A stretch of 64,000 nt of DNA from Lunatibacter salilacus (GCF_009797935.1 NZ_VOLC01000004.1:192820-256819); one strand, 5' to 3'. Positions 23,661 to 43,853 are shown, counted from the first letter of the stretch. Notes: generated from the sequence alone by a model not told the origin. A program made the numbers and translations.

Positions 23661-25814
23661 ATGCCCCGTAAAATTTTGCTTGGGTTCATCGTTGGTTTTT
23701 TAATTTCAGCAACTTTATCTGCCCAGCAAGCCTGGGAAGAAGTGGCACCTGGAATCTGGAAGACGATCGTTGGAAATCCGGATGATTTTAATCTGTTAAC
23801 TGCCGCTGGAGTTTCCCCGAAGCTGGATGGTCTCAAGAAAATGCCCGCAGGGGTTTTTCCTTTAGACCCATCCCAAATCGTTCTCGAAGTGACGGAAAAT
23901 CAAACGCAACTTCGTTTTCCCCTACAGCGGGATGAACAGCTTTTTGGGTTTGGTTTAAATTTTAAAACTGTCCATCAACGGGGAAGGATCCTCCGACTAC
24001 ATGTCGATCATTATGGGGACGGCGATAATGGGCGAACCCATGCGCCGGTGCCTTTTTACGTGTCATCTGCAGGCTATGGGGTATTTGTCAATGCTGCACG
24101 CTATATTGATGTCTATGCAGGGACAGGATCCAGAAAGGACAGTCCAAATCCTCCCGAAGCAAGAGACCGAAATACGGATAATGCCTGGACCTCCCGGCCC
24201 TATTCGGATGCCGTGGAAATGCGCATTCCTGCCCAAGGGGCAGAAGTGTACCTATTTGCAGGCCCCACGTCTTTGGATGCTGTCCGTAGATACAATCTAT
24301 TTACCGGAGGTGGCCCTTTGCCTCCCCGGTGGGGGCTTGGATTTACCCAGCGGGTTCACAGGCTATTTACTGACGATCAAGTGCGGGAAGAAGTCAGGGA
24401 ATTTGAACAACGAGGATTTCCCCTTGATTTTGTTGGATTGGAGCCGGGATGGCAAAGTAAATCCTACCCAAATACCTTTGTTTGGGATTCGGGGAGATTT
24501 CCGGATCCGGAGGGATTTATGGCTGACATGATGGACAAGGGAATCCGGATTAATCTATGGGTCAATCCCTTTGTTTCCCCCGATTCCCCGATTTATAAAG
24601 ATATTCTTCCCCTTACCGGCTCCCATACAGTTTGGGCTGGGGTGGTTCCGGATTTTACTCTTCCCGCAGCCCAAGAGATATTTTGGAAACTATTTGAATC
24701 AGAACACATCGCCAAAGGAGTAAGTGGGTACAAAGTGGATGAGGTAGACGGATACGATCAATGGCTGTGGCCGGATGTTGCCAGATTTCCATCCGGGATT
24801 TCTGCAGAACAAATCCGGCAGACCTATGGACTACTAGTTCAAAAGCAAAGTGCAGCGCTTTTTAGAAACAAAAATCAACGTACCTATGGCTTGGTACGGG
24901 CATCTAATGGTGGTGGAACCTCTTTTCCTTATGTGATTTATAACGATTATTACAACCATCGGGATTTTATCACCGCACTGATAAACAGCGGATATGCGGG
25001 TGTTCTATGGACTCCCGAGGCAAGGGCTTCCAAAACTGCCGAAGAATGGCTTCGGCGGATGCAAACAGTGGTTTTTTCTCCTATGGCCATGATCAATGCC
25101 TGGGCAAGTGGCACCAAGCCATGGTCTTACCCGGAGGTAGAAGAGGAAGTTAAAAGTATGGCCTTGCTCCGTATGCAGATGATGCCTTACTGGTATTCTG
25201 AATTTGCCAAATACCATGCTGATGGAACACCGCCATTTCGGGGAATGAACTTGGAAGAAGGTTTTTCAAGTAGTAATCAGCAACTAACAATTGCGGACGA
25301 AGAAGCCGATTTGGAGGCAAACCCCTATGCTGAAGCCATCCGAAAGGAAGTGAAAGATCAGTATATGGCTGGCGAATATTTACTTGTTGCGCCGATGTTT
25401 GAAGGTGAAACCACCCGCAGCGTTGTATTGCCAAGTGGAAAGTGGTTTGATTTTTATACCGGAGAATTGGTAGGCGAAGGAGAGGTAATTTCGGTAACTC
25501 CGGGGTTGGAAAGGATTCCAGTGTTTGTCAAAGACGGTGGAATTATCCCGATGACTGAAGCTAGACTCCATGCCCCTGCCAAAGGAGAAAAATACAACTT
25601 GGAAATAAGACATTATGGCGAAAAGCCTGGTAATTACCTGCTCTATGACGATGATGGAGAGTCTTTTGACTATGAGAAGGGTGATTATTCCTGGAGGAAG
25701 TTGTCAGTTTCTGATCAGAGAAATGGTAAATTAACCGGGAGCGTATCAAAGGCTGAAAAGGATAAACCCGACAACCTGGATCAGATCACATGGAGATTTA
25801 TGACTAATCAATGA
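23661..25814 (+). CDS. glycoside hydrolase family 31-like alpha-glycosidase, secreted
   Basis: Signal peptide; FVWDSGRFPDPEGFMADMMDKGIRINLWVNPFV matches the GH31 FTWDxxRFPDP...G.K.V.I.DP block; putative nucleophile region GYKVDEVDG. Confidence 0.6.
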   Translation: MPRKILLGFIVGFLISATLSAQQAWEEVAPGIWKTIVGNPDDFNLLTAAGVSPKLDGLKKMPAGVFPLDPSQIVLEVTENQTQLRFPLQRDEQLFGFGLNFKTVHQRGRILRLHVDHYGDGDNGRTHAPVPFYVSSAGYGVFVNAARYIDVYAGTGSRKDSPNPPEARDRNTDNAWTSRPYSDAVEMRIPAQGAEVYLFAGPTSLDAVRRYNLFTGGGPLPPRWGLGFTQRVHRLFTDDQVREEVREFEQRGFPLDFVGLEPGWQSKSYPNTFVWDSGRFPDPEGFMADMMDKGIRINLWVNPFVSPDSPIYKDILPLTGSHTVWAGVVPDFTLPAAQEIFWKLFESEHIAKGVSGYKVDEVDGYDQWLWPDVARFPSGISAEQIRQTYGLLVQKQSAALFRNKNQRTYGLVRASNGGGTSFPYVIYNDYYNHRDFITALINSGYAGVLWTPEARASKTAEEWLRRMQTVVFSPMAMINAWASGTKPWSYPEVEEEVKSMALLRMQMMPYWYSEFAKYHADGTPPFRGMNLEEGFSSSNQQLTIADEEADLEANPYAEAIRKEVKDQYMAGEYLLVAPMFEGETTRSVVLPSGKWFDFYTGELVGEGEVISVTPGLERIPVFVKDGGIIPMTEARLHAPAKGEKYNLEIRHYGEKPGNYLLYDDDGESFDYEKGDYSWRKLSVSDQRNGKLTGSVSKAEKDKPDNLDQITWRFMTNQ

Positions 25815-26063
25815 GTTGATAGGTCTATGGGTTGATAAGTTGATGAACTCTCTTAGTCTCTCAGTCCCTAAGTCCCTCCGTCCCTCAGTCTCCAAGTAGG
25901 TTGATAGGTTGATAGGTCACAGTCCCTCCGTCCCCATCTCTCAGTCACTGCCGCCTCCCGTCTTCAAACTTCCGTCTCCAAGTAAGATGATGGGTTGATT
26001 AACTCAATAACCTAATAACCTAATAACTTAACTCCCTTAGTCTCTAAGTCCCTCCGTCTCTCA
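25815..26063. repeat. composite short tandem/direct repeat block between convergent genes
   Basis: gttgata(g/a)gt x4; agtccctccgtc(c/t)c x4; aataacct x3. The last agtccctccgtctc copy encodes the C-terminal DGGT-stop of the 1618-aa gene. Confidence 0.5.
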
Positions 26064-29000
26064 TACCATTACTCAACACCTTCTTAATCCCTTCCAGCCC
26101 TTCTACAAAAAGGGACATCTGTCCGATCACCTGAGCCATTCGATCGGAATCGCCAAGTCCGCGGATCCGGTTGTTTTTCACGAAAGTTTCCTTGATGGTT
26201 GTCCATCGATTGGATCGGGTTTCGTCCAGCAGGTTCATCATCTCGAAAAGCTTCAATAAGTTGGACTCTGCATCCGAGGTCAGGGTTTGGGATTCGTTTT
26301 GGTAATGATCTAAAACTAACTGCATAACTTCCTTATCATTCAAAATAGGGACCACTTGGCTGATTAGTTTGTTCATGTCCCGGTACGAACCCTGAAGCTT
26401 AAAGGGTGGCTCAACCCGGTAATCGTCGGCCATTGCCGCGGAGGCAATATATTGGGCATTCACTTGAAGCACCACATCCCTGACCATTATACATTTCCTA
26501 AGGACAGAAAGGCAATCCTGTATTTCCTGCGAAGATAGGTTTCCTTCCAGATTGGGATAGTTGGGATCTTCATTTTCAATAAACTGTACCAATTTGTACA
26601 AATTTTCAATTCCATATTGCGTGAGCGATTTGAGGATAGGGTTGGAGGTAAGGCCATTTTCGATCAAGCTGAGTTTAAATAGGTCTGCCCGGTTGTTAAC
26701 CATATCCCCCAAATTGTAAATATCCGCCCTGTTGGAGAGCATATCCGGAATTTGGAACTTGTCACCGCTTTCGGTGTACGGATTTCCAGCCATTACCACA
26801 CAAAAGCGCTTTCCCCGAAAGTCATAGGTTTTGGATTGTCCATTAAATACACCTTCTATTTTTCGCTGTCCATCTGCTAGTGAAATGAATTTTTGTAAAA
26901 ATTCGGGATTACAGTGCTGAATGTCATCCAGGTAGAGCATGACATTGTCACCCATTTCCAAGGCGAGGTTGAGCTTCTGAAGTTCCTGCCGGGTAGCGGC
27001 ATTACGGGCTTCAGCGGGATCCACAGAAGTGATTTCGTGACCAATGGAAGGTCCATTAATTTTCATAAAGATCAAACCGAGTCTGTCAGCCACATATTCC
27101 ATCAGGGTGGTTTTTCCATAGCCGGGAGGGGAAATCAGCAATAGCATGCCTGATCGGTCAGTGCGTTTGTCGGCGCCAAATGCCCCCATTTGTTTGGCAA
27201 AATTGGTTCCGATAAGCGGCAAATACACTTGGTTAATAAGTTTGTTACGGACAAAAGAAGTCAATACCTGAGTTTGAAATTCATGAAGCCTTAATTCGCT
27301 TTTCTTTTGTTCGATCAGTTGGTGCTTTAATGCCTGAAGCCGTAGATATTTCGGGTGTACTTCTCCTACGAATCGCCTAAGACGAGAGGTGAATTCGTGG
27401 TAGTCGAAATGGTATTTTCCTTCCCCGTCTTCTGAATGTATACCAATGGATTTGACAGATTTTATTTCTTGTTGCGAGGAAATATGCTGCACGTAGTGCG
27501 TATCCGGGCTTTCCATAATCAGGCAAGAAGCGGCTTCTTCAATTATTTCTTCCCTGACTCCTGGCCGCTTTTTAGCTGCTGATGCCTGCATCCATTGTTT
27601 GCACAGGTGCCACTCTGCCGCGGGAAAGTCAGCGAGCCCTTTTTGGGCCTCTAAAAAAGTGGATTCTGAATTTTTCTCCCTTAAGTTTTTTCGAAAATCC
27701 TCCAGAAGTTCCTTTGCTGACCTTTCCAAGATAAATCCATCCGTGGCTTGTTCTACCGCTAAATACTTTGCGGCTTCCAAGGAATCTATTCCTTCCATTA
27801 ATTTATTTTGGACGGAAAATTCCTTTATAGCCTCACTTAAACTTTGGATAAGATGTGTGTATTCTTGGGTATGCTCGAATACCTGCCGCATCAAATTGAC
27901 AAAGACAAATTGCTTTTTGAAATATGCTTTTTTGTCAACATCAACATAATGCCAGAATAATTTAGCCAAGATACGGGTCTTTGCGGGAAATTGTAACAGG
28001 CCTAAATCTTTGGTTTTTTCAATCAGGGTTTGTAAAAGCAGTAGGGCATCCTGATCGTGAACACCTTTAACATACCCCTCGCCATAGTGGTTGGTCATGT
28101 ATTCACTTATTTTCTCTACGAGATCATCTTCGGTGGGAAGATCATTGGGATTCAGCTCTTGAAATACCTTCCATGCAAGATATTCGGCCCGTTGAACATC
28201 TTTGTTTTCGGATGGGAGTTCCTGCTCCCAAACTTCCCGAAGATCATCGATGGCTGCCGCATCCATGGCTTCATAGTATGAAGTGCCAGTAAGATGGTAA
28301 TAATATTGCCTGTCCCTGATTAGAAGGGTAAGGTCCAGTTTTTGGTTATTTACGGCGAAACGAACATCCCCCATCCGAATAATGTTATTTCCATCTTCGT
28401 AGAGTTCTTTTTTATCTTTAAGTGCACGGATTGCCTCCTGCTGCAGCACTTGAAGCTGATTGAGCAAGTCTTCTGATTTTCCGGCGTCATCCAACTGCTG
28501 TAGGTTCTTGGCGGAGTCACGAACTTTGTCAATCATCAGATCTGAGGCAAAGTATCCGTTGATTTCAATTTCAGACTCGAAGGTCGCCGCCTTGGATTGA
28601 ATACCCTTTAGAATTCGCTGACCAGCCGCAAAAAGTGAATTCGTCCTCCTGTTTCGTGCTTCTGTTAGGGAAACTTTTTTGGATTCAAAAGCCGCATATA
28701 CTGCTTCTCTTTTTTCCGTGATCTTATCGATGAACTCATCGAAATCGACAAAACGGCTTTCGAGTTCTTCCAACTGTATGGAGAGTTTTGTCAGGTACTC
28801 GTCACATTTGACGGGATCATTGGCCAGGTCCAGGTAGTTGACTATAGCCTGCTCAAAGAGTGTCAACTGGGCGGAAAAATCGGCCCGAGCCTCCCGTTCC
28901 CCCAGTTGCCGCCGTTTATTGTTAAGTGCTACCCGCTTTTGGTTGAGTTGCGCAAAAATGACCGATATGTTTTCTATGATCTGAGTGCTGTGGGAGGTAT

Positions 29001-30900
29001 CTTCTACTTTTAGGTTGTTAACAATTTCTATCAACAGCTCCAACTGACGGGAAAGTTCGTCAAAGTCCTTTTCAAGATTTTTTACATCAATTACTTTAGT
29101 AAGTTTTTGGACTTCGGTTCCCAGATAGTCCATACGCTCCTGATAGTAGGAAAGTGCATTTTCCTGCAATAAAAACTGCACACAAGCATCCGCCAAATCG
29201 TCTGCTCGGCTAGCTATACTTTCTTCCAGTTTGGCCACGGCCTCCATGTCAATGTACCGGAGGCTTTTCAGCCCAATAATCTCCCCACGGAGCTTGCGTA
29301 ACTTGGAAAGCAAAGAAACATATTCCTCTAATGTGTCATAACTAGCTCTACGGGTATCAAACAAAATTTTATTCACATCAGTGGTAGCCTTTTCAAGGTT
29401 TTCCGTTGTGTTTTTTCGAATTTGAACTACCTTTTCAAACTCATCTATTGCCGACAGGGCAATTTCTTTTACCTGCTGCAAGGGCTCATGGAGACTGCCA
29501 GCCCGCTGGTTATTGAGCCAGAAGTAGCCGTCCGTAATGCTTTGGCTCTTTCGTTGGATATCCTCATACAACCCATCGTAACTGTCCTCTTTGGTAAGCA
29601 AAACAATCAATTCCTGTATTTCAGCCATGGCCCTTACAATGGGCCTATTACCTATTTTATACAGTTCATGGTTTTTGAATGCCTCATTGGGGATTAATTC
29701 CTTGGAATAAGGCGTTTGCCAGATTTGGATAAGATGGTGTTTACTCGGTGCGATTTCCGTATTGAAATAGCACAGCTCCCCATTTCCAAATAACGTGTAT
29801 CCATTGCAGAAAATCGGAGTCTTTACAGTCTGCTCAATAACGTTATAAGAAAGTATGACGAAATCATGATTCTTTTCTTCATAAAAAACAAACAAAAAAT
29901 CCTCCCCATTGGGAGATTGGATTTTCCGAAGGAATTTTACGCCTTCAATTTTCCTGTCAAATAGTTTGTATTCACCTGTCTGCAGGTAATAGCCATTCGA
30001 AAGGATAATTCCCTGATCATCGGGTAGCAGAATTCCCGCATCCTTAAGGGTATCTACGCGGATCACATTTTTGATGCGGTGGTTGAATATAAAAAAACGG
30101 TCGCTTTCCAAATAGGGACGGATCTTCAGAAGAACTAAATTTCCCAAATCACAAAAGTGGATTTCCGCATCATCCAGCGATTGATCCCTTTGGTCCACTT
30201 CTTCTTGGTAGATCCCCTGACCGTTATCTGTGTTATCTTCCACTTTGATGGTGAGGTCACCTCCCAATGTCTCTACGAAGACTTTGTCCGCAATGGAAAC
30301 GTGTGGATTCTTGCCGACTCGCTGCATATCCCGTGTGGCTTTAGTCCAAGTAAATTCATGTTGAGGGGGAAATCGTACGTCGGCAGCACTTCTGGAATCA
30401 ACATAGATTAGTTTTTCACCGTCAATAAGCCACTTAAATGCTTTGATATCAGACGGGCTGTCTGAAAGCTGAAAAACAAAGTACAGGTAATTCAGATGGA
30501 TGGTAAATCTGGAAAATTGCGTGTTCCTGTAGAATTTATACAGGTTTTGAAGTTCGTTGGCAAACTCAGAATCTGATAGGATATCGATAGGAGCATGGTG
30601 AAACTCGTGGTCTTGGAAATGATACACACTGAAGACATCGGGAATTTCCAAGGTGGACTTGAGCCCCAGCCTTACATTGTATCCTAAAAGGCAAATGTTT
30701 CCAACCGACACAATGTCCCTGGCTACGCAGTTATGGTCGGTACTGATCCGTACATTGGAAAGCAGCTTAAAATCCACAGCCCCGAAAATCTGCTGACGTT
30801 CCTTGTTCAGGGTTTGAATCCTCGTGAGAAGTTCTTGGCGTTGGTGCTGAAGCCGTTGTTGAATGATTTCATAAGTACCCCTTTCGATCGTATTATCCAT
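26044..30900 (-). CDS. 1618-aa coiled-coil protein with C-terminal MoxR/AAA_5-like AAA+ ATPase domain; function unknown
   Basis: Residues ~1-400 are beta-rich and globular; ~450-830 are a heptad-rich coiled coil. Walker A SPPGYGKTT is at 27106-27123 (checked on the DNA), Walker B MLYLDD at 26923-26937, sensor-1 VVMAGNP, and MLSNRAD (MoxR LxxRF-like). It is the last gene of the PspA/flotillin operon. Confidence 0.7.
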   Translation of the reverse strand: MDNTIERGTYEIIQQRLQHQRQELLTRIQTLNKERQQIFGAVDFKLLSNVRISTDHNCVARDIVSVGNICLLGYNVRLGLKSTLEIPDVFSVYHFQDHEFHHAPIDILSDSEFANELQNLYKFYRNTQFSRFTIHLNYLYFVFQLSDSPSDIKAFKWLIDGEKLIYVDSRSAADVRFPPQHEFTWTKATRDMQRVGKNPHVSIADKVFVETLGGDLTIKVEDNTDNGQGIYQEEVDQRDQSLDDAEIHFCDLGNLVLLKIRPYLESDRFFIFNHRIKNVIRVDTLKDAGILLPDDQGIILSNGYYLQTGEYKLFDRKIEGVKFLRKIQSPNGEDFLFVFYEEKNHDFVILSYNVIEQTVKTPIFCNGYTLFGNGELCYFNTEIAPSKHHLIQIWQTPYSKELIPNEAFKNHELYKIGNRPIVRAMAEIQELIVLLTKEDSYDGLYEDIQRKSQSITDGYFWLNNQRAGSLHEPLQQVKEIALSAIDEFEKVVQIRKNTTENLEKATTDVNKILFDTRRASYDTLEEYVSLLSKLRKLRGEIIGLKSLRYIDMEAVAKLEESIASRADDLADACVQFLLQENALSYYQERMDYLGTEVQKLTKVIDVKNLEKDFDELSRQLELLIEIVNNLKVEDTSHSTQIIENISVIFAQLNQKRVALNNKRRQLGEREARADFSAQLTLFEQAIVNYLDLANDPVKCDEYLTKLSIQLEELESRFVDFDEFIDKITEKREAVYAAFESKKVSLTEARNRRTNSLFAAGQRILKGIQSKAATFESEIEINGYFASDLMIDKVRDSAKNLQQLDDAGKSEDLLNQLQVLQQEAIRALKDKKELYEDGNNIIRMGDVRFAVNNQKLDLTLLIRDRQYYYHLTGTSYYEAMDAAAIDDLREVWEQELPSENKDVQRAEYLAWKVFQELNPNDLPTEDDLVEKISEYMTNHYGEGYVKGVHDQDALLLLQTLIEKTKDLGLLQFPAKTRILAKLFWHYVDVDKKAYFKKQFVFVNLMRQVFEHTQEYTHLIQSLSEAIKEFSVQNKLMEGIDSLEAAKYLAVEQATDGFILERSAKELLEDFRKNLREKNSESTFLEAQKGLADFPAAEWHLCKQWMQASAAKKRPGVREEIIEEAASCLIMESPDTHYVQHISSQQEIKSVKSIGIHSEDGEGKYHFDYHEFTSRLRRFVGEVHPKYLRLQALKHQLIEQKKSELRLHEFQTQVLTSFVRNKLINQVYLPLIGTNFAKQMGAFGADKRTDRSGMLLLISPPGYGKTTLMEYVADRLGLIFMKINGPSIGHEITSVDPAEARNAATRQELQKLNLALEMGDNVMLYLDDIQHCNPEFLQKFISLADGQRKIEGVFNGQSKTYDFRGKRFCVVMAGNPYTESGDKFQIPDMLSNRADIYNLGDMVNNRADLFKLSLIENGLTSNPILKSLTQYGIENLYKLVQFIENEDPNYPNLEGNLSSQEIQDCLSVLRKCIMVRDVVLQVNAQYIASAAMADDYRVEPPFKLQGSYRDMNKLISQVVPILNDKEVMQLVLDHYQNESQTLTSDAESNLLKLFEMMNLLDETRSNRWTTIKETFVKNNRIRGLGDSDRMAQVIGQMSLFVEGLEGIKKVLSNGMRDGGT

Positions 30901-30985
30901 AGCAGATTAAACGTGAAAATGAAAAAAACTCTTTAAAGTGGGAGAGGATTAAATTCCCTCCCCCGGAAAATTCCTATTTAAAATT

Positions 30986-33016
30986 TTAGGACAATTTCCT
31001 GTTTTCTATTCCCATGGATTTGGCCATATCCATCAACCCTGCCAAAAAACCTCGGTCCTCCTCCGAAGCGGTTATTTGGAGCTGACCAATCAATGCGGCA
31101 ATGGATAGATTTTTGACATCAGAGGTGGTGATGCCATACTTATCTGCAACTCGTTTGACCTTTGCAATAAGGTCGCTATTTTCTCCAGATTCTCCATTGC
31201 CATTACTGAGCAGTGCTCCTTTAAACTGGCTAATAGTATTGGAATTCTCTACCAATTTATCGATTCCCTTTCCATTTGAAACCTGACGAATCACATTTTC
31301 AAAGAAGGTATTATCACCACCCACAATATCGATTTTCGCTGATTTGAAGGCTTCTGCCAATACCTTGGCCTGAGCGTCGGCGATGTCTTTTTGTATTCCA
31401 ATTTGGGCTAATTCCACTTCTTTTTCCTTTTGCAAATGAAGACGGAATTCCTCGTGTTCTTTGCCCGCATCATTTAGCTGCTTCATGGCAGTTGCCTTTT
31501 CCTGAATTCCCTTGGCCTCCGCAACGGCTTTTTCTTGAATGACCTCTGCCTCTGCCAAGCCTTCCTTTCGTTTGGCCTCTGCTATTCGTTCAATCACAAC
31601 AGCATCAACTGTGCCTTGTCTTTCGAGGGCATCTGCTTTCGCATGCATCACTTGCGCCTCCGAAAGCCCTATGGCAGCCTCTTCCTTGGCTATAGCTTCA
31701 GCTATGATTTTCCGAGCTTCGGCATCTTTATCAGCCGCATCTTTTCGTGCTCCAGCTTCAATGATGATTTTTTGAGCTTCAAATTTGGCAGATTTCTCCT
31801 TGGCTTCTGCGGATTTGACCTCTTCGATCAGGTTCACCTCCGCAGCTTTGGAAGCGATTATCAAAGCCACTTCTTTTTGTCTTCCCGCCTCTTTTAAGGC
31901 TTCTACATCTTTTATCTTTTCTTTTTCCTCGACCACGGTTTTTTCCATGGCTACCCGTTCCCTAATGGCATCCTGGATGTTTTTCTTCTCCAATTCTACC
32001 GCTTTCTCTTTTTCAATTTGTGCAAGTTCTACTACCCGCTCTCTTTCAGTGGCCTCGATGTCCCTATCCTTCTGTACCCGCTCGGTTTCCACCGCTTCTG
32101 CGCGCTCTTTATTCTTGAGTGCGATAATAACCTGCCGCTGCTTATTCTCCTCCTGTATCTGTAGCTGCTCTTCCGTGCGTATCCTAACTTCCTCTGATTT
32201 CAGTCGCTCCAAAGAAGAAACCTTGTCTATTTCAGCCTGCTCTCGTGCTTTTATGGTTTCTATCTCACGACGTTGAGACTCTTCTTTCTCTTTGAGTTGC
32301 TTCTCCAGTTCCAGAATGGCTTCCCGGGCTTCGACATCCTGTTTCTTTATAATCTTTTCTTCATCCCTGCGGATTAGATTGGCCTTGATGTTTTGGGCTG
32401 CGGTAAGTTCAGTGATTTTTTTGATGCCTTCTGCATCCAGAATATTATTTGAATCCAAGTTTTCTACCTTGGTTTGCTCCAGGTAATCAATGGCACAATC
32501 ATCCAGCACGTACCCATTTAAGTCAGTTCCGATAATGTCAATGATTTCATTCCTGAATTCCCTTCGGGCTTCATAGAGTTCGATAAATTCAAATTTTTTC
32601 CCAACGGTTTTGAGTGCTTCAGAGAATTTGGCCTCAAACAAGCTTTCCAAGGTTTCATGGTCTGATGCACGGGCACAACCTATGGTTTGGGCTACATTGA
32701 TGATATCCTGTACGGATTTGTTTACCCGTACAAAGAAGGCTACCTTGATGTCCGCCCGCATATTGTCCTTGCAGATCAGACCGTCTTTGGCCATTCTGGA
32801 AATATCCAGCTTCTTAACTGAAATATCCATGATTTCCTGTTTGTGAAGAATAGGGACTACAAGTCCCGCATTAAAAAAGATCTTTACTCCGCCTTGCCCG
32901 GTCCGCACCAGAACCCGGCCTTGGCTCACTTTTTTGTACATGGAGATGAGCCACATGAGCAGCCCTAGCAGCACAATCATTCCGAATATGGCCACTGTGT
33001 AAAAAGATTCCGTCAT
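30986..33016 (-). CDS. flotillin-like SPFH/band-7 protein (YqiK type)
   Basis: N-terminal TM helix; SPFH domain; ~330-aa E/K/A-rich coiled coil (AEAKEK.., EKEKAVELEK..); YqiJ-like gene 12 bp upstream. Confidence 0.85.
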   Translation of the reverse strand: MTESFYTVAIFGMIVLLGLLMWLISMYKKVSQGRVLVRTGQGGVKIFFNAGLVVPILHKQEIMDISVKKLDISRMAKDGLICKDNMRADIKVAFFVRVNKSVQDIINVAQTIGCARASDHETLESLFEAKFSEALKTVGKKFEFIELYEARREFRNEIIDIIGTDLNGYVLDDCAIDYLEQTKVENLDSNNILDAEGIKKITELTAAQNIKANLIRRDEEKIIKKQDVEAREAILELEKQLKEKEESQRREIETIKAREQAEIDKVSSLERLKSEEVRIRTEEQLQIQEENKQRQVIIALKNKERAEAVETERVQKDRDIEATERERVVELAQIEKEKAVELEKKNIQDAIRERVAMEKTVVEEKEKIKDVEALKEAGRQKEVALIIASKAAEVNLIEEVKSAEAKEKSAKFEAQKIIIEAGARKDAADKDAEARKIIAEAIAKEEAAIGLSEAQVMHAKADALERQGTVDAVVIERIAEAKRKEGLAEAEVIQEKAVAEAKGIQEKATAMKQLNDAGKEHEEFRLHLQKEKEVELAQIGIQKDIADAQAKVLAEAFKSAKIDIVGGDNTFFENVIRQVSNGKGIDKLVENSNTISQFKGALLSNGNGESGENSDLIAKVKRVADKYGITTSDVKNLSIAALIGQLQITASEEDRGFLAGLMDMAKSMGIENRKLS

Positions 33017-33028
33017 TTTTTCCTTGGT

Positions 33029-33652
33029 TTATGGTTGATACTTTTGTGCAAAATAAAATTTCTTATCCGGCGATTCCTCAAGTATGATCACCGTGTCTCC
33101 GTATGCAATCGCATCGTCGTCGATCGATTTGGCATATACTTTTAGTACATCGTCCCCGAAGAGTATATCGATCTGACCCATTTTATCCTTACTCATGGGA
33201 ATGACTACCCGGCCCACTTTTCCAATAAAGTCAATAGGTAGTTCTCCCTTGTGATTAAAAACCGCATACAGCTTCACAAAGGGCTTGGCGACTACTTTGG
33301 TGATGAGCATGCTGACGACAAATCCCGGAAGATATACCAAGAACCCCAGAATATTGTCTGAAATGCCAAGTAGGGCAGTAACGTTCACATTGATAAGCCA
33401 CATACTAAATACGACTAGGGTGATGATGAACATCACAGGCAACTCCCCAATGTAGAAAAACTCCCAAACCGCTGACCAAAAGCCCTGACCTTCCACATTT
33501 CCCACATCGGCACTATTGACGTCTGCGTCTGCATCCAGATCCAGGTCAAGCCCGGTAAAGATGATGACAATCCAATATAATACCACCACTAACATTAATA
33601 GCGTAAGGATAAAGTTTGCAGGCGCAAAAGAGATGTCTATTAATTTTTCCAT
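33029..33652 (-). CDS. YqiJ/NfeD-like (DUF1449-type) membrane protein with C-terminal OB-fold
   Basis: 207 aa; DLDLDADADV acidic stretch; two or three TM helices; C-terminal beta-rich segment (GKVGRVVIPM...GQIDILFGD). The arrangement matches E. coli yqiJ-yqiK. Confidence 0.55.
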   Translation of the reverse strand: MEKLIDISFAPANFILTLLMLVVVLYWIVIIFTGLDLDLDADADVNSADVGNVEGQGFWSAVWEFFYIGELPVMFIITLVVFSMWLINVNVTALLGISDNILGFLVYLPGFVVSMLITKVVAKPFVKLYAVFNHKGELPIDFIGKVGRVVIPMSKDKMGQIDILFGDDVLKVYAKSIDDDAIAYGDTVIILEESPDKKFYFAQKYQP

Positions 33653-33736
33653 GGAAATACCAATTTGAAAGGGTAAGAGATGGGAGAGTTACACCGATAC
33701 CAGGTTTGTTCAGGTGTGGGATTACGATAAATTAGC

Positions 33737-34432
33737 CTATTCCATACCCATCTGCTTTTTTAGTTGGGCCAGTTCATCTTCTACGGTCAAGTCCTCTAGC
33801 GTTTTCTTGAGTTTCTCATCGTGGGATTGGTTGGCATTGGCCATTTCACCGTATGCTTCCGCCAATGCTTCATCTTGAACCACTTTTTCTTTCATACGTT
33901 CCAGCATTGCCACCACCCCAGTGCTGTCCATATTGGTCATCTGTTTGTTGATTTTTTCTGTGGCACTGCTTACTTTGATTCGCGCCTTCAGAGTCCGAAG
34001 TTCGTTCTCCCACTGCTGTATGCCCGCTTTAATTCTACTGAGATTTTGTTCCAGAGTGCCTACCTGCTTCTCCAAATTTGACACTTCGTCCCTGATTAGA
34101 AGAATTTCCTGGGCCACTTGGGCTTTGCGTTTGAGATTTCCTTTGACAAGGTTTTCAGCTTCTTGGGTCTCAAGTTCTCCTTGTTGGGATTTTTTAAGAA
34201 GCAAAACCGATTTGTTTTGAAGGTCCTCTTCAAGTATTTCATTTTCTTTAAGATCCTTTGACCTACGGATATGCATTGCTTTTACTTCAGCCAGAGCCCT
34301 GAGGGCTTTGTCCTGATTGTCCCTCATATCCCGGAGTCCCTGTTCGATCATATTGATGGGGTCTTCCAGTTTGTCGATGGCCGAATGGGTTTCAGCCTGA
34401 CCTATTTTGAATAATCTTTTCAGCACGTTCAT
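33737..34432 (-). CDS. PspA/IM30 family protein (phage-shock protein A / Vipp1-like, ESCRT-III superfamily)
   Basis: MNVLKRLFKIGQAETHSAIDKLEDPINMIEQGLRDMRDNQDKA matches the PspA N-terminus (cf. MGIFSRF..EDPQKLV..QEMEDTL); all-helical coiled coil; 231 aa. Confidence 0.8.
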   Translation of the reverse strand: MNVLKRLFKIGQAETHSAIDKLEDPINMIEQGLRDMRDNQDKALRALAEVKAMHIRRSKDLKENEILEEDLQNKSVLLLKKSQQGELETQEAENLVKGNLKRKAQVAQEILLIRDEVSNLEKQVGTLEQNLSRIKAGIQQWENELRTLKARIKVSSATEKINKQMTNMDSTGVVAMLERMKEKVVQDEALAEAYGEMANANQSHDEKLKKTLEDLTVEDELAQLKKQMGME

Positions 34433-34448
34433 ATCTTTTGTGTTTTAA

Positions 34449-34838
34449 TTATTTTGAAAAGGATAATATTTCATTGGAATATTCGGATAGCAAGAGACCC
34501 AGGGAATTGATCGTTCCTTCCAACTCCTTCAAGTCCAGTGTCTCTACCTGTAATGTGTTTCGGAAAATGACCTTTTCTCCTTTCTCGTCCAGAACGAAGG
34601 CACCATGTACAATGTCTCTGTTTTTTATCAACAGGTGTCTGAAAATATCGGGATCATCGGTGACATCGAAGAGGTACTGTTCTATAATGACAATGGGTGT
34701 TGCCACTCCAATGACCATGTTTTTTACGCCCATTTCCTCATTGTCGATGACCAATAAATTGTCTGAGGTGTTTTCATATAATAACCCATAGCCCAGTTCC
34801 ATGACAAAATCTCTGACTTTCTTAAAATAATGATCCAT
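34449..34838 (-). CDS. YbjN/YjfI(DUF2170)-like small cytoplasmic protein
   Basis: 129 aa; alternating beta/alpha pattern typical of the YbjN family; first gene of the operon, 16 bp before pspA (cf. E. coli yjfI-yjfJ). Confidence 0.4.
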   Translation of the reverse strand: MDHYFKKVRDFVMELGYGLLYENTSDNLLVIDNEEMGVKNMVIGVATPIVIIEQYLFDVTDDPDIFRHLLIKNRDIVHGAFVLDEKGEKVIFRNTLQVETLDLKELEGTINSLGLLLSEYSNEILSFSK

Positions 34839-34918
34839 ATGCGGGATAATTTAAAGTTGTTAAAAGTTAGGATACTGCGATTAATCACTTCACAAGTATA
34901 AAAAAAGAAGAAATAAAA

Positions 34919-34959
34919 TGCAAATAAAATTAGCATTTATTTTGCTAATTTTATTTGCA
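34919..34959. promoter_or_regulatory. perfect 17-bp inverted repeat (TGCAAATAAAATTAGCA-N7-TGCTAATTTTATTTGCA), probable operator
   Basis: Read directly from the sequence. It lies 32 bp upstream of the XRE regulator ATG (34991) and ~80 bp upstream of the divergent operon start (34838). Confidence 0.6.
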
Positions 34960-34990
34960 AAGCCTAATTTTGTTTCAAATAGTAACGGTT

Positions 34991-35626
34991 ATGTCAAAAT
35001 TCGGGAAAAATATAAAGAAGATCAGAAATGTGCGCGGCTTGACTCAAGCGCAGTTGGCCGAAATGATTGAAGTAAATAGGGGTGTTGTTTCTTCTTACGA
35101 GGAGGGCAGGGCTGAACCTAAAATTGAGACCATTATAAAAACCGCGGAGGTATTTCAACTATCGATTGATCTTTTGCTCAAGAGTAGCGTCACTGTAAAT
35201 CAGTTAAGTGGGTTTGCCCTGCCGGAGATTGCCAAGGGTAAAGGAGAAGTTCAAAAGCTACCGGAAAATAGGCAGACGGTATTTGATTTTTTACCAAAAG
35301 GCACTGTGGGAATTTCATGCAGGGACATAGAACCTAGCACTTATATAAAGAAAGCCGAGACCATTTTAGCGGCCCCGGCAAAAGCTGTAGTGGGAAAGCT
35401 TATGCTGATTCAATCCGAAGGGAAGAAGTATTTGGGCAAAGTCACGGCGGTAAATGCCAATGAAATTAGCTTGGATAATTTAGATAGGATATTACATCAG
35501 CCAAGCTTGATGTTGGAGGTTATGGGGATTTATTCTCCAATCCAACAGATAAGCCCTTTGGAAGAAAGGGTACTTCAGCTAGAGAATCGATTGGATCAGC
35601 TAGAAGTAAAGCTGCGGGAAATCTAA
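34991..35626 (+). CDS. XRE-family helix-turn-helix transcriptional regulator with C-terminal coiled-coil/unknown domain
   Basis: MSKFGKNIKKIRNVRGLTQAQLAEMIEVNRGVVSSYEEG is a canonical XRE HTH; C-terminal leucine-zipper-like LEERVLQLENRLDQLEVKL. The ORF-track start at 34955 is TTG; the ATG at 34991 is preferred. Confidence 0.75.
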   Translation: MSKFGKNIKKIRNVRGLTQAQLAEMIEVNRGVVSSYEEGRAEPKIETIIKTAEVFQLSIDLLLKSSVTVNQLSGFALPEIAKGKGEVQKLPENRQTVFDFLPKGTVGISCRDIEPSTYIKKAETILAAPAKAVVGKLMLIQSEGKKYLGKVTAVNANEISLDNLDRILHQPSLMLEVMGIYSPIQQISPLEERVLQLENRLDQLEVKLREI

Positions 35627-40533: not shown

Positions 40534-40972
40534 AAGATGGAACTGTTCTATAAATCCAAAAAACAGATTGCATGATTTCAATATGCTGGAAGCTTCATAT
40601 TTGATATAATCATATTACTTTTGAAAGGATCAGGTACAGATGTAATTCCCTTAAAAAATGGATCCCATAGGCCACAAAGAAATTTATAGATCAAGTAAAA
40701 ACTATGTGCGCTATGAGTCCTATGTGGTAAAATTTTATACACGAATTCTTAATGGAGCTGTTTTTTAACCACATAGTTGCATAGTTCACATAGAAATCTT
40801 AAAAAATTATTGACTTCGTCCTTTGTAGTTTTTTATCTTTAACTGCAACGGATGCTTAGTAGATTAACGGTAGGTAAAGAAATAAAAAAAAACGCTGTTT
40901 CTTTCAAGTATTTCCGTGTCCTTCGTGGCTAACCGTTTCTAATATAAATTAAACGTCGTCGATCATATCCCT

Positions 40973-41410
40973 TCATTTTTCACTGAGACCTTGGTTTTTT
41001 AAATCTATCTGCTCTTTCACATGCTGTATAAACCGCATTCTTTTGTAATCAAACCACTTCTGCCGATACTCCCCAGAGTTGTCGATCTCCCATTTGAAGT
41101 TTTGAAATGGTTTTCGACGGTCTAATGCATCGAATAGCTTTTGACGCAATTTTTTGTCATCAACCTCCTCCGCAAAACCAGCCATTATCCGGAAAGACTC
41201 CCGCGATTCGAAACCTTCAAACTCAAAATAATCCCTCCAATTATCCTCTATCTCTTTGATATCCTCCTCCCAAGGTTCCTCGTCACCCCCGCCAAAGCTG
41301 TCAAAATTAATAATCGTTCGGATCGCACCTGTTTTTAAGTTGTAATAGCACTTCATTCCACACTCCAGATTATCAGCGATTTCTTCAATTTCCTTTTCGC
41401 TTAATTTCAT
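40973..41410 (-). CDS. hypothetical acidic cytoplasmic protein
   Basis: 145 aa; no recognisable motif; good codon continuity. Confidence 0.3.
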   Translation of the reverse strand: MKLSEKEIEEIADNLECGMKCYYNLKTGAIRTIINFDSFGGGDEEPWEEDIKEIEDNWRDYFEFEGFESRESFRIMAGFAEEVDDKKLRQKLFDALDRRKPFQNFKWEIDNSGEYRQKWFDYKRMRFIQHVKEQIDLKNQGLSEK

Positions 41411-41499
41411 TGTATTAGAGTTTCATAGTTTCGACGTGCTTAGTGATTTATTCCCCGTATAGTAAATCCATATATTTCACTAAATTACTTGAATAACTG

Positions 41500-41940
41500 T
41501 TAAATCCCGAGTGTTATCAGATGTTTCACATGGTGGTAGGTCAAGGTTGCTTTTATACATTCCTTTAACTCTGACACGGGGATTTTTTGATTTAGCTGAA
41601 AAATGATGGCCCGGTTTCCCTCATACTGAAACATAGGGCCAAATACGATCCTAAAGGTTTCCACCAGGCGACTGGTACATTGGAAATACATGGCATATTG
41701 GTCGGAGGCCCGTTCTTTCCAATCCATGCGCAGGGTGCTTCCATGTTTTGTCACAAAACTGGGTTCGCCCCATTTCAAGGTAATTTCTAATTCTTCAATG
41801 CCAGCCGTTTCTTCAGCTGTCTGAATTACCAACTCTTTTAGGTATAGCATCTTATCCCGAACTGAGTCAGGATAGTTTGAAAATATTTCGTTGACTTTTG
41901 GGTCTGTTTTTAAAATAAGTTTTGACATTTGTTTCTTCAA
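41500..41940 (-). CDS. DUF1801 (YdhG-like) domain protein
   Basis: LKWGEPSF...GNRAIIFQL pattern typical of DUF1801. Confidence 0.5.
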   Translation of the reverse strand: MKKQMSKLILKTDPKVNEIFSNYPDSVRDKMLYLKELVIQTAEETAGIEELEITLKWGEPSFVTKHGSTLRMDWKERASDQYAMYFQCTSRLVETFRIVFGPMFQYEGNRAIIFQLNQKIPVSELKECIKATLTYHHVKHLITLGI

Positions 41941-42208
41941 TAGTTGTCAACTTTACGTGGCGGTAAACAAGGTAAAAATTTTAATAATTAGTAATTCGTT
42001 TGTATTCAAAAATGTTTCGGAAATACAGCGGAATTCCCATTCTAAACATTATTCATTTCATATACAAATTATTCTATGTATTTGATAAATGAAAGAATTA
42101 TGTTTTAAATTTGGCTTACAGGACACAATTAAGGTGATCGGTCATTCAACTTTTCCAGATTATACTTTACTTTCTAAAACCGGACAACATTACTTTTTAC
42201 AATAACAT

Positions 42209-42440
42209 TACAGGGGTGGTGGAACGTTACAGTTTGAAGCTACCCCTTGGTCTTATCGTTGGACATCCCAAGGTGATGCAGCTGTTCTGTCACAACCGTA
42301 TATTCAGTGGAAGCACAAGGTGAATGATGACATTTCCTTTGTCGCCGGCTTGCACAGCCAGTATTATTCGCTTACTAATAGTTGGTCTGTTAAGGGCTGG
42401 GTGAGGATACCGGAGAACAGTTTACCACTACGGAATTAGA
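42209..42440 (+). pseudogene. start-less C-terminal fragment of a beta-rich (outer-membrane-like) protein
   Basis: Open frame HYRGGGTLQFEATPWSYRWTSQGDAAVLSQPYIQWKHKVNDDISFVAGLHSQYYSLTNSWSVKGWVRIPENSLPLRN-stop; a stop immediately upstream and no start codon. Confidence 0.25.
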
Positions 42441-42444
42441 CGAG

Positions 42445-42723
42445 GTGAATATGAATCAGGTGTTCAATCAATACAGGGATAAATTCAATATCCCATTTCC
42501 GGATGAAATTCGTAGAATTCGCAAAAAATATGGATTATCGGCAAAAAGGATGTCGGAGATACTGGGATTTGGAGTAAACAGTTATAGGAATTACGAAGCG
42601 GGTGAAATGCCAAGTATTGCCAATGCCAAATTAATTCAAATGGTTGACGACCCATCTTATTTTTTGGATATGGTTGAATTATGCGGCACGTTGGATAATG
42701 AGGTGAAACCAAAATTTATATAA
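42445..42723 (+). CDS. small HTH-domain protein (antitoxin/regulator-like), partner of the downstream Panacea-domain gene
   Basis: 92 aa; RKKYGLSAKRMSEILGFGVNSYRNYEAGEMP HTH-like segment. Confidence 0.4.
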   Translation: MNMNQVFNQYRDKFNIPFPDEIRRIRKKYGLSAKRMSEILGFGVNSYRNYEAGEMPSIANAKLIQMVDDPSYFLDMVELCGTLDNEVKPKFI

Positions 42724-42768
42724 AAAGCACAATTTCTAGTCGAAGAAAGAAAGAGGAATATTTTTCTT

Positions 42769-43304
42769 TTGAACCTTAAAGATTATTTATTGGGTGACCC
42801 CTTAGCAGATATTTATTCAGGATACAGAAATCCCAATTTGGAAAAATTAGCCGAAATGGTAGTGTATTTCTCTGAACAAATGGCGCCATTCAAAGCCAAA
42901 ATGAACAAATTGTTATTCTATGCCGATTTTTTAATGTTCAAACGAAGCTGTTTTTCCATTAGTGGCGTTAGATACAAGGCTATTGATATGGGGCCTGTTC
43001 CCTTTAATTTTCAAGTATTTTTGAATATTTAGCCAACAATGATATAATAGATATCTACACTACCGAGTTTCCGCAAGGGTATACAGGGGAAAACTTCATG
43101 GCAATCAAAAGTAGGCCATTTAGTTCCGACTTATTTTCAGTTAATGAATTGGAAGTTTTGGAAAAAATAGCAACCTTTTTTAAGACTATTGGCACAAATG
43201 AAATTAATGAGATGAGTCACCTCAAAGAAGCCTGGAAGAAAAATGAAAAAGAAAAAAGAGTAATAAGGTATGAATATGTGTTTGAATTAAAGTTAGAAGA
43301 TTAA
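42769..43304 (+). pseudogene. Panacea/DUF4065 (SocA-like antitoxin) domain gene split into two frames (42769-43032 and 43098-43304)
   Basis: KLLFYADFLMFKRSCFSISGVRYKAIDMGPVPFNF matches the DUF4065 core. The downstream ORF continues the domain after a frame break with stops in between. Confidence 0.45.
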
Positions 43305-43373
43305 TGGAATTTTATAATGTATGTTTACTCTCAGTGCGCATTTATAAACTTTAAAGACCTGTCCTACAAAACA

Positions 43374-43528
43374 TTAGTCCGTATCAAGTAGCCAGTGAAA
43401 AAGGTTTAAATGCCTCAATCCGTTTCTGTCTTGTATGAAAAAATCCGTCGTAAGCAAATATTTGGGATAGTTGTCGTTGATTTTTTCCAATGCCCCAAAC
43501 TCACGTTCGATGGTATTTTCGCTTGTCA
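43374..43528 (-). pseudogene. C-terminal remnant of an AAA-ATPase (DUF4143-type) gene
   Basis: Minus-strand frame MTSENTIEREFGALEKINDNYPKYLLTTDFFIQDRNGLRHLNLFHWLLDTD-stop. Recalled as resembling the C-terminus of Bacteroidetes AAA_14/DUF4143 ATPases; stop codons upstream. Confidence 0.3.
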
Positions 43529-43853
43529 TTTGCAATGGCTTGGAATAGAGCTTGAAAAAATATTTCGGACATTAACCCTTACAAAGCTAATCTACAATAT
43601 TCCACCACAACCCCAAAAAACCAGCTTGAATCTCCCATTAAATTGCTCAATATGCATCAGGTTTATCCTCCTTACACCGCATAAGACCACTTCTGAACTT
43701 CGAGTATGAGGCTCTGTAGATGACATAGATACTCCCAACTTTAGTCCACGTTATTTTCCCCATCCAAATAACACTTCCCCGTCTCCTACGTTCAAATACC
43801 TAAGCCTCTGCAATTCCAGCGGCGCAAAAACCAAACCATACCCCAAGCCTACC

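Follow-up and report, generated by a model that had tools for sequence, protein, structure and literature searches.

What is a giant AAA+ ATPase needed for in a compact string of genes that otherwise encodes proteins of membrane scaffolds? This question is raised by a locus of Lunatibacter salilacus (Cyclobacteriaceae, Cytophagales, Bacteroidota), which we analysed within a window of 64,000 nucleotides (GCF_009797935.1, NZ_VOLC01000004.1:192820-256819). Five genes on the minus strand encode a CesT/Tir-like small chaperone, a PspA/IM30 protein, a YqiJ/NfeD-like membrane protein, a YqiK-like flotillin and a 1618-aa ATPase, and a gene for a regulator of the XRE type diverges from them (Table 1). 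An earlier interpretation of this DNA, made from the sequence alone and called the sequence-only reading here, had described five minus-strand open reading frames (ORFs) with gaps of 16, 84, 12 and 85 bp, the divergent XRE gene and a perfect palindrome. All of this was reproduced by our ORF table and repeat check (gaps of 85, 12, 84 and 16 bp when read from the end of the ATPase to that of CesT). With moderate confidence, we propose that the genes represent a widespread membrane-scaffold module, in which the ATPase works like a chaperone to remodel a flotillin cage, with PspA as an optional component. Flotillins and PspA are well known to organise bacterial membranes, and the module is a concrete and genetically tractable candidate for the energy-dependent handling of flotillin (possibly also PspA) scaffolds.

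The sequence-only reading had stated that no described system joins all of these genes. However, Ravi et al. (mSystems 2024; bioRxiv 2020; PMC11237479, section 19 and Table S3) list the identical operon in Dokdonia donghaensis (ANH61663.1), including a divergent cHTH regulator and a protein given as 'Betapropeller+Coiled-coil+AAA-ATPase', and suggest, from the analogy with Snf7-Vps4, that the membrane is remodelled at the expense of ATP. Shortened flotillin-YqiJ-ATPase operons and a proteobacterial form with PLD are described in the same paper, and both variants recur in our data. As the architecture in the window corresponds to the Dokdonia operon gene for gene (all six genes with identical order and orientation, within one phylum), the claim of novelty is not upheld. 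The Dokdonia prototype belongs to the Flavobacteriales and the window copy to the Cytophagales, and nothing essential differs between them. The Lunatibacter module is another member of an operon class known from comparative genomics. Our analysis contributes counts of synteny, a conserved operator/promoter element, a MoxR-like assignment of the AAA+ module and the identification of flotillin as the constant partner of the ATPase. Our literature searches for DUF3686, PF12458 or the combination of YqiK, YqiJ and ATPase found no paper, nor did they find an experimental paper on the ATPase family or the operon. A 2026 survey of Pseudomonas SPFH proteins makes no mention of such an ATPase.

A genome scan with the propeller alignment of the ATPase yielded 80 loci, all from Bacteroidota and four of them cut by contig ends, which were compared gene by gene. 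The arrangement XRE(divergent)-CesT-PspA-YqiJ-flotillin-ATPase was found with identical order and orientation in 58 of the 80 loci, whereas 18 loci, all from Chryseobacterium, have XRE-YqiJ-flotillin-ATPase without CesT and PspA. The genes are thus syntenic in relatives, as the sequence-only reading had suggested be checked, and the six-gene arrangement is far beyond chance. The regulator gene is divergent and adjacent in 76/80 loci. Since the genes flanking the module in the window (lipase, M19 dipeptidase, GH31) are never co-conserved in relatives, we consider the module to consist of exactly six genes.

Outside the Bacteroidota, tblastn against a plasmid collection gave homologues in Pseudomonas, Proteus, Vibrio, Photobacterium, Halomonas, Streptomyces, Nonomuraea and Deinococcus. 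We considered ten loci from such other sources, namely five from the plasmid collection and five metagenomic representatives. In all five plasmid-collection loci inspected, an SPFH gene is located directly upstream of the ATPase gene and is itself preceded by an ORF of 144-217 aa. The copies of Streptomyces, Deinococcus, Proteus and Vibrio can be written as small membrane ORF-SPFH-ATPase, without PspA, and the same trio, again without PspA, is present in 4/5 metagenomic representatives (25-32% identity). The ATPase gene is immediately preceded by the SPFH gene in 79 of 79 judgeable Bacteroidota loci and in nine of the ten loci from other sources, whereas CesT and PspA are absent from 18 of the 76 complete Bacteroidota loci and from 9/10 of the others. 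The invariant pairing is therefore that of the ATPase with flotillin (plus the YqiJ-like protein), and CesT-PspA is an accessory. This evidence directs first experiments to the flotillin-ATPase pair rather than to PspA; suitable hosts are Flavobacterium, Chryseobacterium, Proteus mirabilis and P. fluorescens (plasmid pQBR103).

Some of the variant loci deserve a closer description. The 18 Chryseobacterium loci without CesT and PspA (L013, L015-L019, L023, L024, L026, L028, L031, L033, L037, L038, L040, L041, L045 and L047) retain the divergent regulator, and in most of them an unusually long non-coding gap of ~285-445 bp separates flotillin and ATPase, which could hold an internal promoter or a regulatory RNA. 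In Vibrio campbellii (L085, NZ_CP050465.1), genes for a PLD-like protein (PLDc_2, E 2e-30) and TelA (E 2e-78) are found at 13828-15606, directly downstream of the ATPase and on the same strand. A TerD gene is located near the Streptomyces copy of the ATPase (L082). On plasmid pQBR103 of P. fluorescens SBW25 (L081, 986-14190), the string yjfI-pspA-rhomboid-DUF2491-DUF350-DUF1190-glutathionylspermidine synthase leads into a hypothetical-SPFH-ATPase trio; here, an operon of the yjfIJKLMC type is fused to the SPFH-ATPase pair, merging two PspA contexts that were kept separate by Ravi et al.

For the 1618-aa protein, Pfam assigned residues 23-460 to DUF3686 (PF12458, E 1.1e-183) and residues 581-665 to DUF7902 (PF25472, E 4.7e-25), and found a single AAA module at residues 1253-1373, where both AAA (32.0 bits) and AAA_5 (29.3 bits) scored above their cutoffs. 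A transmembrane (TM) scan revealed no TM or hydrophobic segment. Two AlphaFold2 models were built from 26 homologues, one for residues 1-1000 (pLDDT 79.4) and one for residues 950-1618 (pLDDT 77.8). In these models, a helix (8-39) is followed by a beta-rich part (45-395), a helical region (412-831), a small beta unit (841-878) and more helices; the C-terminal half contains an AAA+ alpha/beta core with a lid and then a helical C-terminal region. A Foldseek search with residues 1-1000 returned the propellers of IFT-A, Elp1, prolyl oligopeptidase, YncE and Vps18. The sequence-only reading had recognised an AAA+ protein of the MoxR/AAA_5 type, which agrees with our results, but it had overlooked the N-terminal beta-propeller. 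Its '~400-aa coiled coil' corresponds to the helical spacer of ~420 residues in the model, which includes helices of up to 58 residues according to DSSP and is at most a putative coiled coil. Among the top Foldseek matches to residues 1-1000 are also propeller plus helical-repeat proteins of eukaryotic membrane-coat-like complexes (IFT-A, Nup84 complex, Vps18); the TM-scores of these matches are low (~0.1), so that they may just reflect a combination of a propeller with long helices.

The AAA+ module carries a Walker A motif (GYGK1263T), an unusual Walker B with two aspartates (D1325-D1326), a sensor-1 asparagine (N1373) and a candidate arginine finger (R1391, in 'SNRAD'). At the position of pore loop 1 we find NGPSIGH, without an aromatic residue, and the model shows a pre-sensor-1 beta-hairpin at residues 1347-1360. 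Walker A, Walker B (DD), sensor-1 and a PDML.NR motif are at least 95% conserved among 66 full-length representatives (25-52% identity), which indicates that selection acts on these proteins as ATPases. By its AAA_5 profile match and its pre-sensor-1 hairpin, the AAA+ module is MoxR-like. Compared with the MoxR chaperones CbbQ, NorQ and RavA, which have ~260-500 aa and a VWA-domain partner, the window ATPase is much larger, carries a propeller and a helical spacer in cis, has the DD variant of Walker B and is encoded without a nearby VWA gene. None of the features looked for in a Vps4-like enzyme (classical/meiotic clade) was found, these being a MIT domain (no Pfam match), an aromatic pore loop and a hairpin-free topology; the ATPase is therefore placed outside the Vps4 clade. 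When PDB sequences were searched with the single sequence or a profile of the family's AAA+ region, the matches were confined to the surroundings of Walker A in p97-like proteins, so that the clade is not placeable by this route and had to be assigned by structure comparison.

The family is large. With its first 700 residues as query, 879 clusters at 50% identity were collected (605 at E<=1e-10). Full-length members have 1600-2036 aa, and the family is found in Bacteroidota, Pseudomonadota, Actinomycetota and Deinococcota. It is uncharacterised, and it is not a PADLOC defence protein family; both points had been raised for checking by the sequence-only reading. Public records label it 'DNA repair ATPase', a name that is simply inherited from the Pfam description.

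The two other core proteins could be identified only via fragment scans and pairwise or profile comparisons. In the full-length Pfam scan, the 676-aa protein matched no family even at E<=10, presumably owing to the composition correction for its long Glu/Ala/Lys-rich helix, whereas residues 1-239 alone gave a clear Band_7 match (E 5.5e-13, 49.8 bits versus a cutoff of 23.6). The precomputed Pfam tables of its homologues are blank too. SPFH domains of this subfamily are probably often missed by automated annotation. By BLASTP, the protein aligns with E. coli YqiK over 444 aa including the helical region (E 3e-49, 31% identity). It starts with a hydrophobic segment at residues 8-26, predicted by the TM scan and representing the N-terminal membrane anchor, followed by the SPFH domain (~29-229), the long Glu/Ala/Lys-rich helical region and a subfamily-specific C-terminal region of ~130 aa; the C-terminal Flot domain of Pfam (PF15975) was not detected (E 6.8, 7.2 bits). 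Its SPFH domain shares 40-57% identity with those of the ATPase-linked flotillins of Streptomyces, Deinococcus, Proteus, Pseudomonas and Vibrio, but 32% with that of YqiK. Likewise, the last 137 aa are matched in five of the nine ATPase-linked flotillins compared (E<=2e-6), but not in YqiK. On the basis of these alignments, the ATPase-linked flotillins are a separate subfamily with a C-terminal region of its own.

The 207-aa protein also matched nothing in the full-length Pfam scan, even at E<=10. It has three TM segments predicted by the TM scan and a putative C-terminal OB-like NfeD domain, and a product on record for L. salilacus is 100% identical to it. Its family profile aligned with E. 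coli YqiJ across the TM part and the C-terminal domain (130 columns; hhalign probability 93%, E 3.3e-7). The match to NfeD (PF01957) was subthreshold (14.5 bits versus 29.1, E 0.042) and that to the structure of YuaF (PDB 2k14) weak (E 0.13), and YqiJ_N (PF21001) did not match the protein itself but its distant homologue P0181 (E 6e-26 to the query). Homologues are named DUF1449, YqiJ or OB-fold in public records. The same gene pair, with the same order and topology as in the window, is known as yqiJ-yqiK in E. coli and as yuaF-yuaG (floT) in B. subtilis, although the E. coli locus has no gene for the ATPase, PspA or an XRE protein.

The pairwise precedents named by the sequence-only reading (yjfI-yjfJ, yqiJ-yqiK and B. 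subtilis pspA-ydjGHI) hold. Its product labels PspA/IM30, YqiJ/NfeD-like and flotillin are likewise right in essence, but the 129-aa protein, then called YbjN-like, is better described as CesT/Tir-like (YjfI-like). Pfam gave a full-length match to CesT_Tir_1 (PF22550, E 2.9e-51) and none to YbjN or DUF2170; the similarity to E. coli YjfI is weak (BLASTP E 5e-4). In all 58 loci with a CesT gene it is paired with the PspA gene (median gap 19 bp, 16 bp in the window). The 231-aa product of the latter matches PF04012 over residues 2-227 (E 3e-36, 125.5 bits versus a cutoff of 33.9), has no TM segment and is similar to E. coli YjfJ over its full length (BLASTP E 1e-8). It stays below the NCBIfam equivalog cutoffs for PspA (TIGR02977, 39 bits versus 243) and LiaH (35 versus 380) and is nearer to the YjfJ type than to these equivalogs. 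The dyad yjfI-yjfJ of E. coli thus has the same gene order as the window, with weak but full-length similarity; differences are that the polyamine genes are absent from the window and that Pfam puts the small protein in CesT_Tir_1 instead of DUF2170.

How is the module controlled? The regulator, encoded on the strand opposite to the operon, consists of an N-terminal HTH_3 domain (Pfam, E 1.3e-13), a variable beta-rich middle part and a C-terminal helix resembling a leucine zipper. An alignment of orthologues shows strong conservation of the HTH, with the signature SSYEEGRAEPKIET. All orthologous regulators begin with MS(K/F)FG, which, together with the promoter boxes described below, makes the ATG at 34991 the most likely start, and not the TTG at 34955. 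The TTG start of the mechanical ORF falls within the palindrome. We also considered an active LexA-like S24 protease in the regulator, whose middle part has an S24-like look in the Flavobacteriaceae, but rejected it because the Ser/Lys dyad is not conserved in the orthologue alignment; Ravi et al. (PMC11237479, Table S3) label the Dokdonia counterpart 'cHTH+Protease'.

The candidate operator is composed of two arms of 17 nt that are 100% complementary and separated by a 7-nt spacer. This bipartite element aligns across Cytophagales, Cryomorphaceae/Schleiferiaceae and Niabella, and a box similar to TAnnTTTG is conserved ~20 nt downstream of it when spacers from three orders are aligned. In 68/76 loci, the regulator-operon spacer contains the arm pattern TGCT[AG]A[AT]N3-6[AT]TTGCA, and within the window this pattern matches the two palindrome arms only, plus one loose match. 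A generic best-inverted-repeat score exceeded that of shuffled sequences in just three of 74 regulator-operon spacers, which are AT-rich. As generic palindromy is not above shuffles, the case for an operator rests on the specific conserved 17-nt element.

Bacteroidetes promoters have the consensus -33 TTTG and -7 TAnnTTTG, with the two boxes 19-21 nt apart. We predict one promoter of this kind for each direction. In that of the operon, the -33 box falls within the left palindrome arm; the TTG of the -7 box and the TTTGCA are invariant in the spacer alignment, and a sigma-70-style scan likewise chose 34924..34895. The -7 box of the regulator promoter (34965-34972) fits the consensus perfectly. 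Since this promoter overlaps the right arm of the palindrome, autoregulation is implied, and as both promoters overlap the palindrome, a bound dimer would be expected to occlude both.

The conserved core of the module comprises three components: a YqiJ/NfeD-like protein with three predicted TM segments, a YqiK-like flotillin anchored by its N-terminal TM segment, and the soluble giant ATPase. Most Bacteroidota have a CesT/YjfI-like chaperone and a YjfJ-type PspA ahead of this core. In the mechanism that we propose, a divergent cI-like HTH repressor would control the unit. Judging from the conserved cis elements, a repressor dimer on the 17-7-17 palindrome would cover the -33 box of the operon and the interval from -33 to -7 of its own promoter, until some signal relieves repression. 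By homology to the solved SPFH-NfeD and HflKC assemblies, flotillin may form an SPFH cage together with the NfeD-like protein, anchored in the membrane and facing the cytoplasm; SPFH-NfeD cages and the pairing of FtsH with HflKC have been reviewed (PMC13086221). The ATPase would oligomerise via its AAA+ module, dock by its propeller, possibly onto the subfamily-specific C-terminus of flotillin, and spend ATP on the assembly, opening or recycling of the cage, much as large complexes are matured or remodelled by MoxR-type chaperones. The CesT-like chaperone would keep PspA soluble, and PspA could be recruited to the same patches, where it would seal or stabilise stressed membrane. The analogy here is to YdjI and PspA of B. 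subtilis, where the SPFH protein YdjI is reported to be required for PspA to reach the membrane (PMC8581546).

A more specific version of this proposal is that the DUF3686 ATPase is a dedicated ATP-driven machine for assembly or disassembly of flotillin cages, which in Bacteroidota couples the cage to a PspA/ESCRT-III polymer. We put this version forward only tentatively. If true, no earlier bacterial enzyme would be known to spend energy on remodelling either scaffold, and the ATPase would correspond to Vps4 or FtsH-HflKC in function but not by homology.

Several points weigh against a flotillin-cage remodeller encoded in a single transcription unit. MoxR proteins normally act with a VWA partner, and a VWA domain was found neither in the six products nor in the scanned neighbours. 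That the propeller docks on the C-terminus of flotillin is purely conjectural, and a distant homologue (L092) has no adjacent SPFH gene. Co-transcription of the five genes, too, is only inferred. In relatives, the median gaps are 19 bp for CesT-PspA, 3 bp for PspA-YqiJ, 113 bp for YqiJ-flotillin and 206 bp for flotillin-ATPase. The last of these, 85 bp long in the window, reaches 250-445 bp in Chryseobacterium, and such long gaps leave room for an internal promoter; in a few loci of Flavobacteriales and Chitinophagales, 1-3 extra ORFs are located between flotillin and ATPase. Terminator scans detected no canonical intrinsic terminator in the 84-bp or the 85-bp gap. The flotillin-ATPase gap harbours, however, a G+C-rich hairpin of 9 bp (GGGGGAGGG/CCUCUCCC; 30940-30965, minus strand). 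This hairpin has no adjacent U-run (the U-run starts 13 nt downstream), and its fold is ordinary in comparison with shuffled sequences (z -0.96); it could conceivably tune the stoichiometry of flotillin to ATPase.

Among the alternatives, one leaves the cage in place and changes the substrate: flotillin and the NfeD-like protein would form a cage that corrals damaged or unassembled membrane proteins, and the ATPase would extract or unfold these clients rather than act on the scaffold, similar to FtsH within HflK/C but without a protease. SPFH cages are recurrently paired with AAA+ enzymes, as in HflKC-FtsH or in prohibitin with the m-AAA protease, and a propeller is a typical substrate- or adaptor-binding domain. 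Moreover, FloA-NfeD of S. aureus is reported to stabilise unfolded proteins (PMC13220708, PMC11222466). The likeness to HflK/C-FtsH is that of a membrane SPFH scaffold with an AAA+ enzyme, but FtsH is a membrane-anchored AAA+ protease of the classical clade, whereas the window ATPase is soluble, protease-less, MoxR-like and equipped with a propeller. Its AAA+ module lacks the canonical aromatic pore loop for threading, Pfam shows no protease or other effector domain, and the module encodes no client candidate. Finally, access of such a large soluble protein to the interior of a cage is doubtful. We regard client processing as unlikely.

A second alternative, at which the sequence-only reading had arrived, centres on PspA: the giant AAA+ protein would be the bacterial counterpart of Vps4 and would disassemble or remodel the PspA polymer, with flotillin serving just as a platform. 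The resemblance to the ESCRT-III/Vps4 system lies in the fact that a PspA of the ESCRT-III superfamily is encoded together with an AAA+ ATPase, in one tight gene string in 58 of the 80 Bacteroidota loci and, with the same linkage, on pQBR103. Ravi et al. (PMC11237479) draw this analogy as well, and the niche is open, as a 2025 review states that bacteria appear to lack a Vps4-like ATPase and treats the roles of Band-7 partners as unsettled. The reading is weakened by the dispensability of PspA and CesT, the linkage to PspA being facultative in this family, and by the ATPase belonging to another AAA+ clade, without a MIT domain. A Vps4 counterpart acting primarily on PspA thus seems improbable to us.

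The module could also be an inducible system for anti-phage defence or other conflicts, derepressed upon infection, with gene products that alter or sacrifice the membrane. An XRE/cI-like repressor with an operator is typical of switches in defence systems and prophages, and the regulator matches HTH and control-protein models of PADLOC. The flanking genes differ among relatives, copies are found on megaplasmids such as pQBR103, and the Vibrio copy adds the downstream PLD-like gene and TelA. However, the five structural proteins have no significant match in PADLOC 2.0; what was returned is noise at E values of at least 0.0045 (ATPase, YqiJ-like protein) or coiled-coil noise (PspA). A tblastn search with the propeller against 50,697 phage records gave no homologue, matches in PHROGs are generic only, and domain scans of the window and neighbouring genes detected no integrase or defence genes in this metabolic neighbourhood. 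In addition, all components come from envelope-stress families. A defence function is therefore judged very unlikely.

That the large protein is a true DNA-repair ATPase merely located beside membrane genes, as the description of PF12458 and the NCBI product names would have it, is hardly credible, since no DNA-binding or nuclease domain was detected in it, its sole similarity to RuvB is at the level of Walker A and far below cutoffs, its gene is linked to an SPFH gene in at least four phyla, and the literature search mentioned above found no paper on DUF3686 or PF12458. Several thousand public proteins named 'DNA repair ATPase' are probably unrelated to DNA repair.

Table 1. Features of the Lunatibacter salilacus module (positions counted from the first nucleotide of the window)
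Feature	Position	Strand	Basis and remarks
1618-aa propeller/helical/AAA+ ATPase	26044-30900	-	ORF table; soluble; DUF3686 family
AAA+ module of the ATPase, residues ~1249-1490	26431-27156	-	motifs and model
Helical spacer of the ATPase, residues 412-831	28408-29667	-	DSSP of model; includes DUF7902
N-terminal beta-propeller domain of the ATPase	29521-30834	-	DUF3686 23-460; model strands 45-395
YqiK-like flotillin, 676 aa	30986-33016	-	ORF table; Band_7 on N-terminal part, BLASTP to YqiK
YqiJ/NfeD-like inner-membrane protein, 207 aa	33029-33652	-	ORF table; profile match to YqiJ
YjfJ-type PspA/IM30 (ESCRT-III superfamily), 231 aa	33737-34432	-	ORF table; PF04012
CesT/Tir-like (YjfI-like) small chaperone, 129 aa	34449-34838	-	ORF table; PF22550
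Predicted operon promoter	34893-34924	-	-33 TTTG 34924-34921, 20-nt spacer, -7 TATACTTG 34900-34893
Candidate operator, 17-7-17 inverted repeat	34919-34959		TGCAAATAAAATTAGCA-N7-TGCTAATTTTATTTGCA
Predicted regulator promoter	34941-34972	+	-33 TTTG 34941-34944, 20-nt spacer, -7 TAATTTTG 34965-34972
Divergent XRE gene, mechanical ORF, 223 aa	34955-35626	+	TTG start; HTH_3
XRE regulator, probable ORF, 211 aa	34991-35626	+	ATG start; orthologue alignment

The surroundings of the module in the window are those of ordinary metabolism, with a SusC/SusD pair, aminotransferases, GH31, a class-3 lipase, an M19 dipeptidase and HisA/HisF. Of these, the GH31 gene converges on that of the ATPase, and the spacer from it to the ATPase stop codon (25815-26078) consists of 8-nt periodic repeats. 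Repeat units of AGTCCCTN are found at 25838-25902 and 26022-26078, and those of GGTTGATA at 25814-25844, 25899-25913 and 25985-25999. The motif GACGGAGGGACT occurs three times in this spacer, compared with 0.17 occurrences expected in the window. The final ~6 codons of the ATPase (MRDGGT*) fall within the repeat. Another conspicuous stretch extends over ~3 kb at 40600-43850, where G+C is lower (0.38-0.40) and only short ORFs (<=146 aa) are found; it is flanked by the genes for an FG-GAP protein and an aromatic amino-acid hydroxylase.

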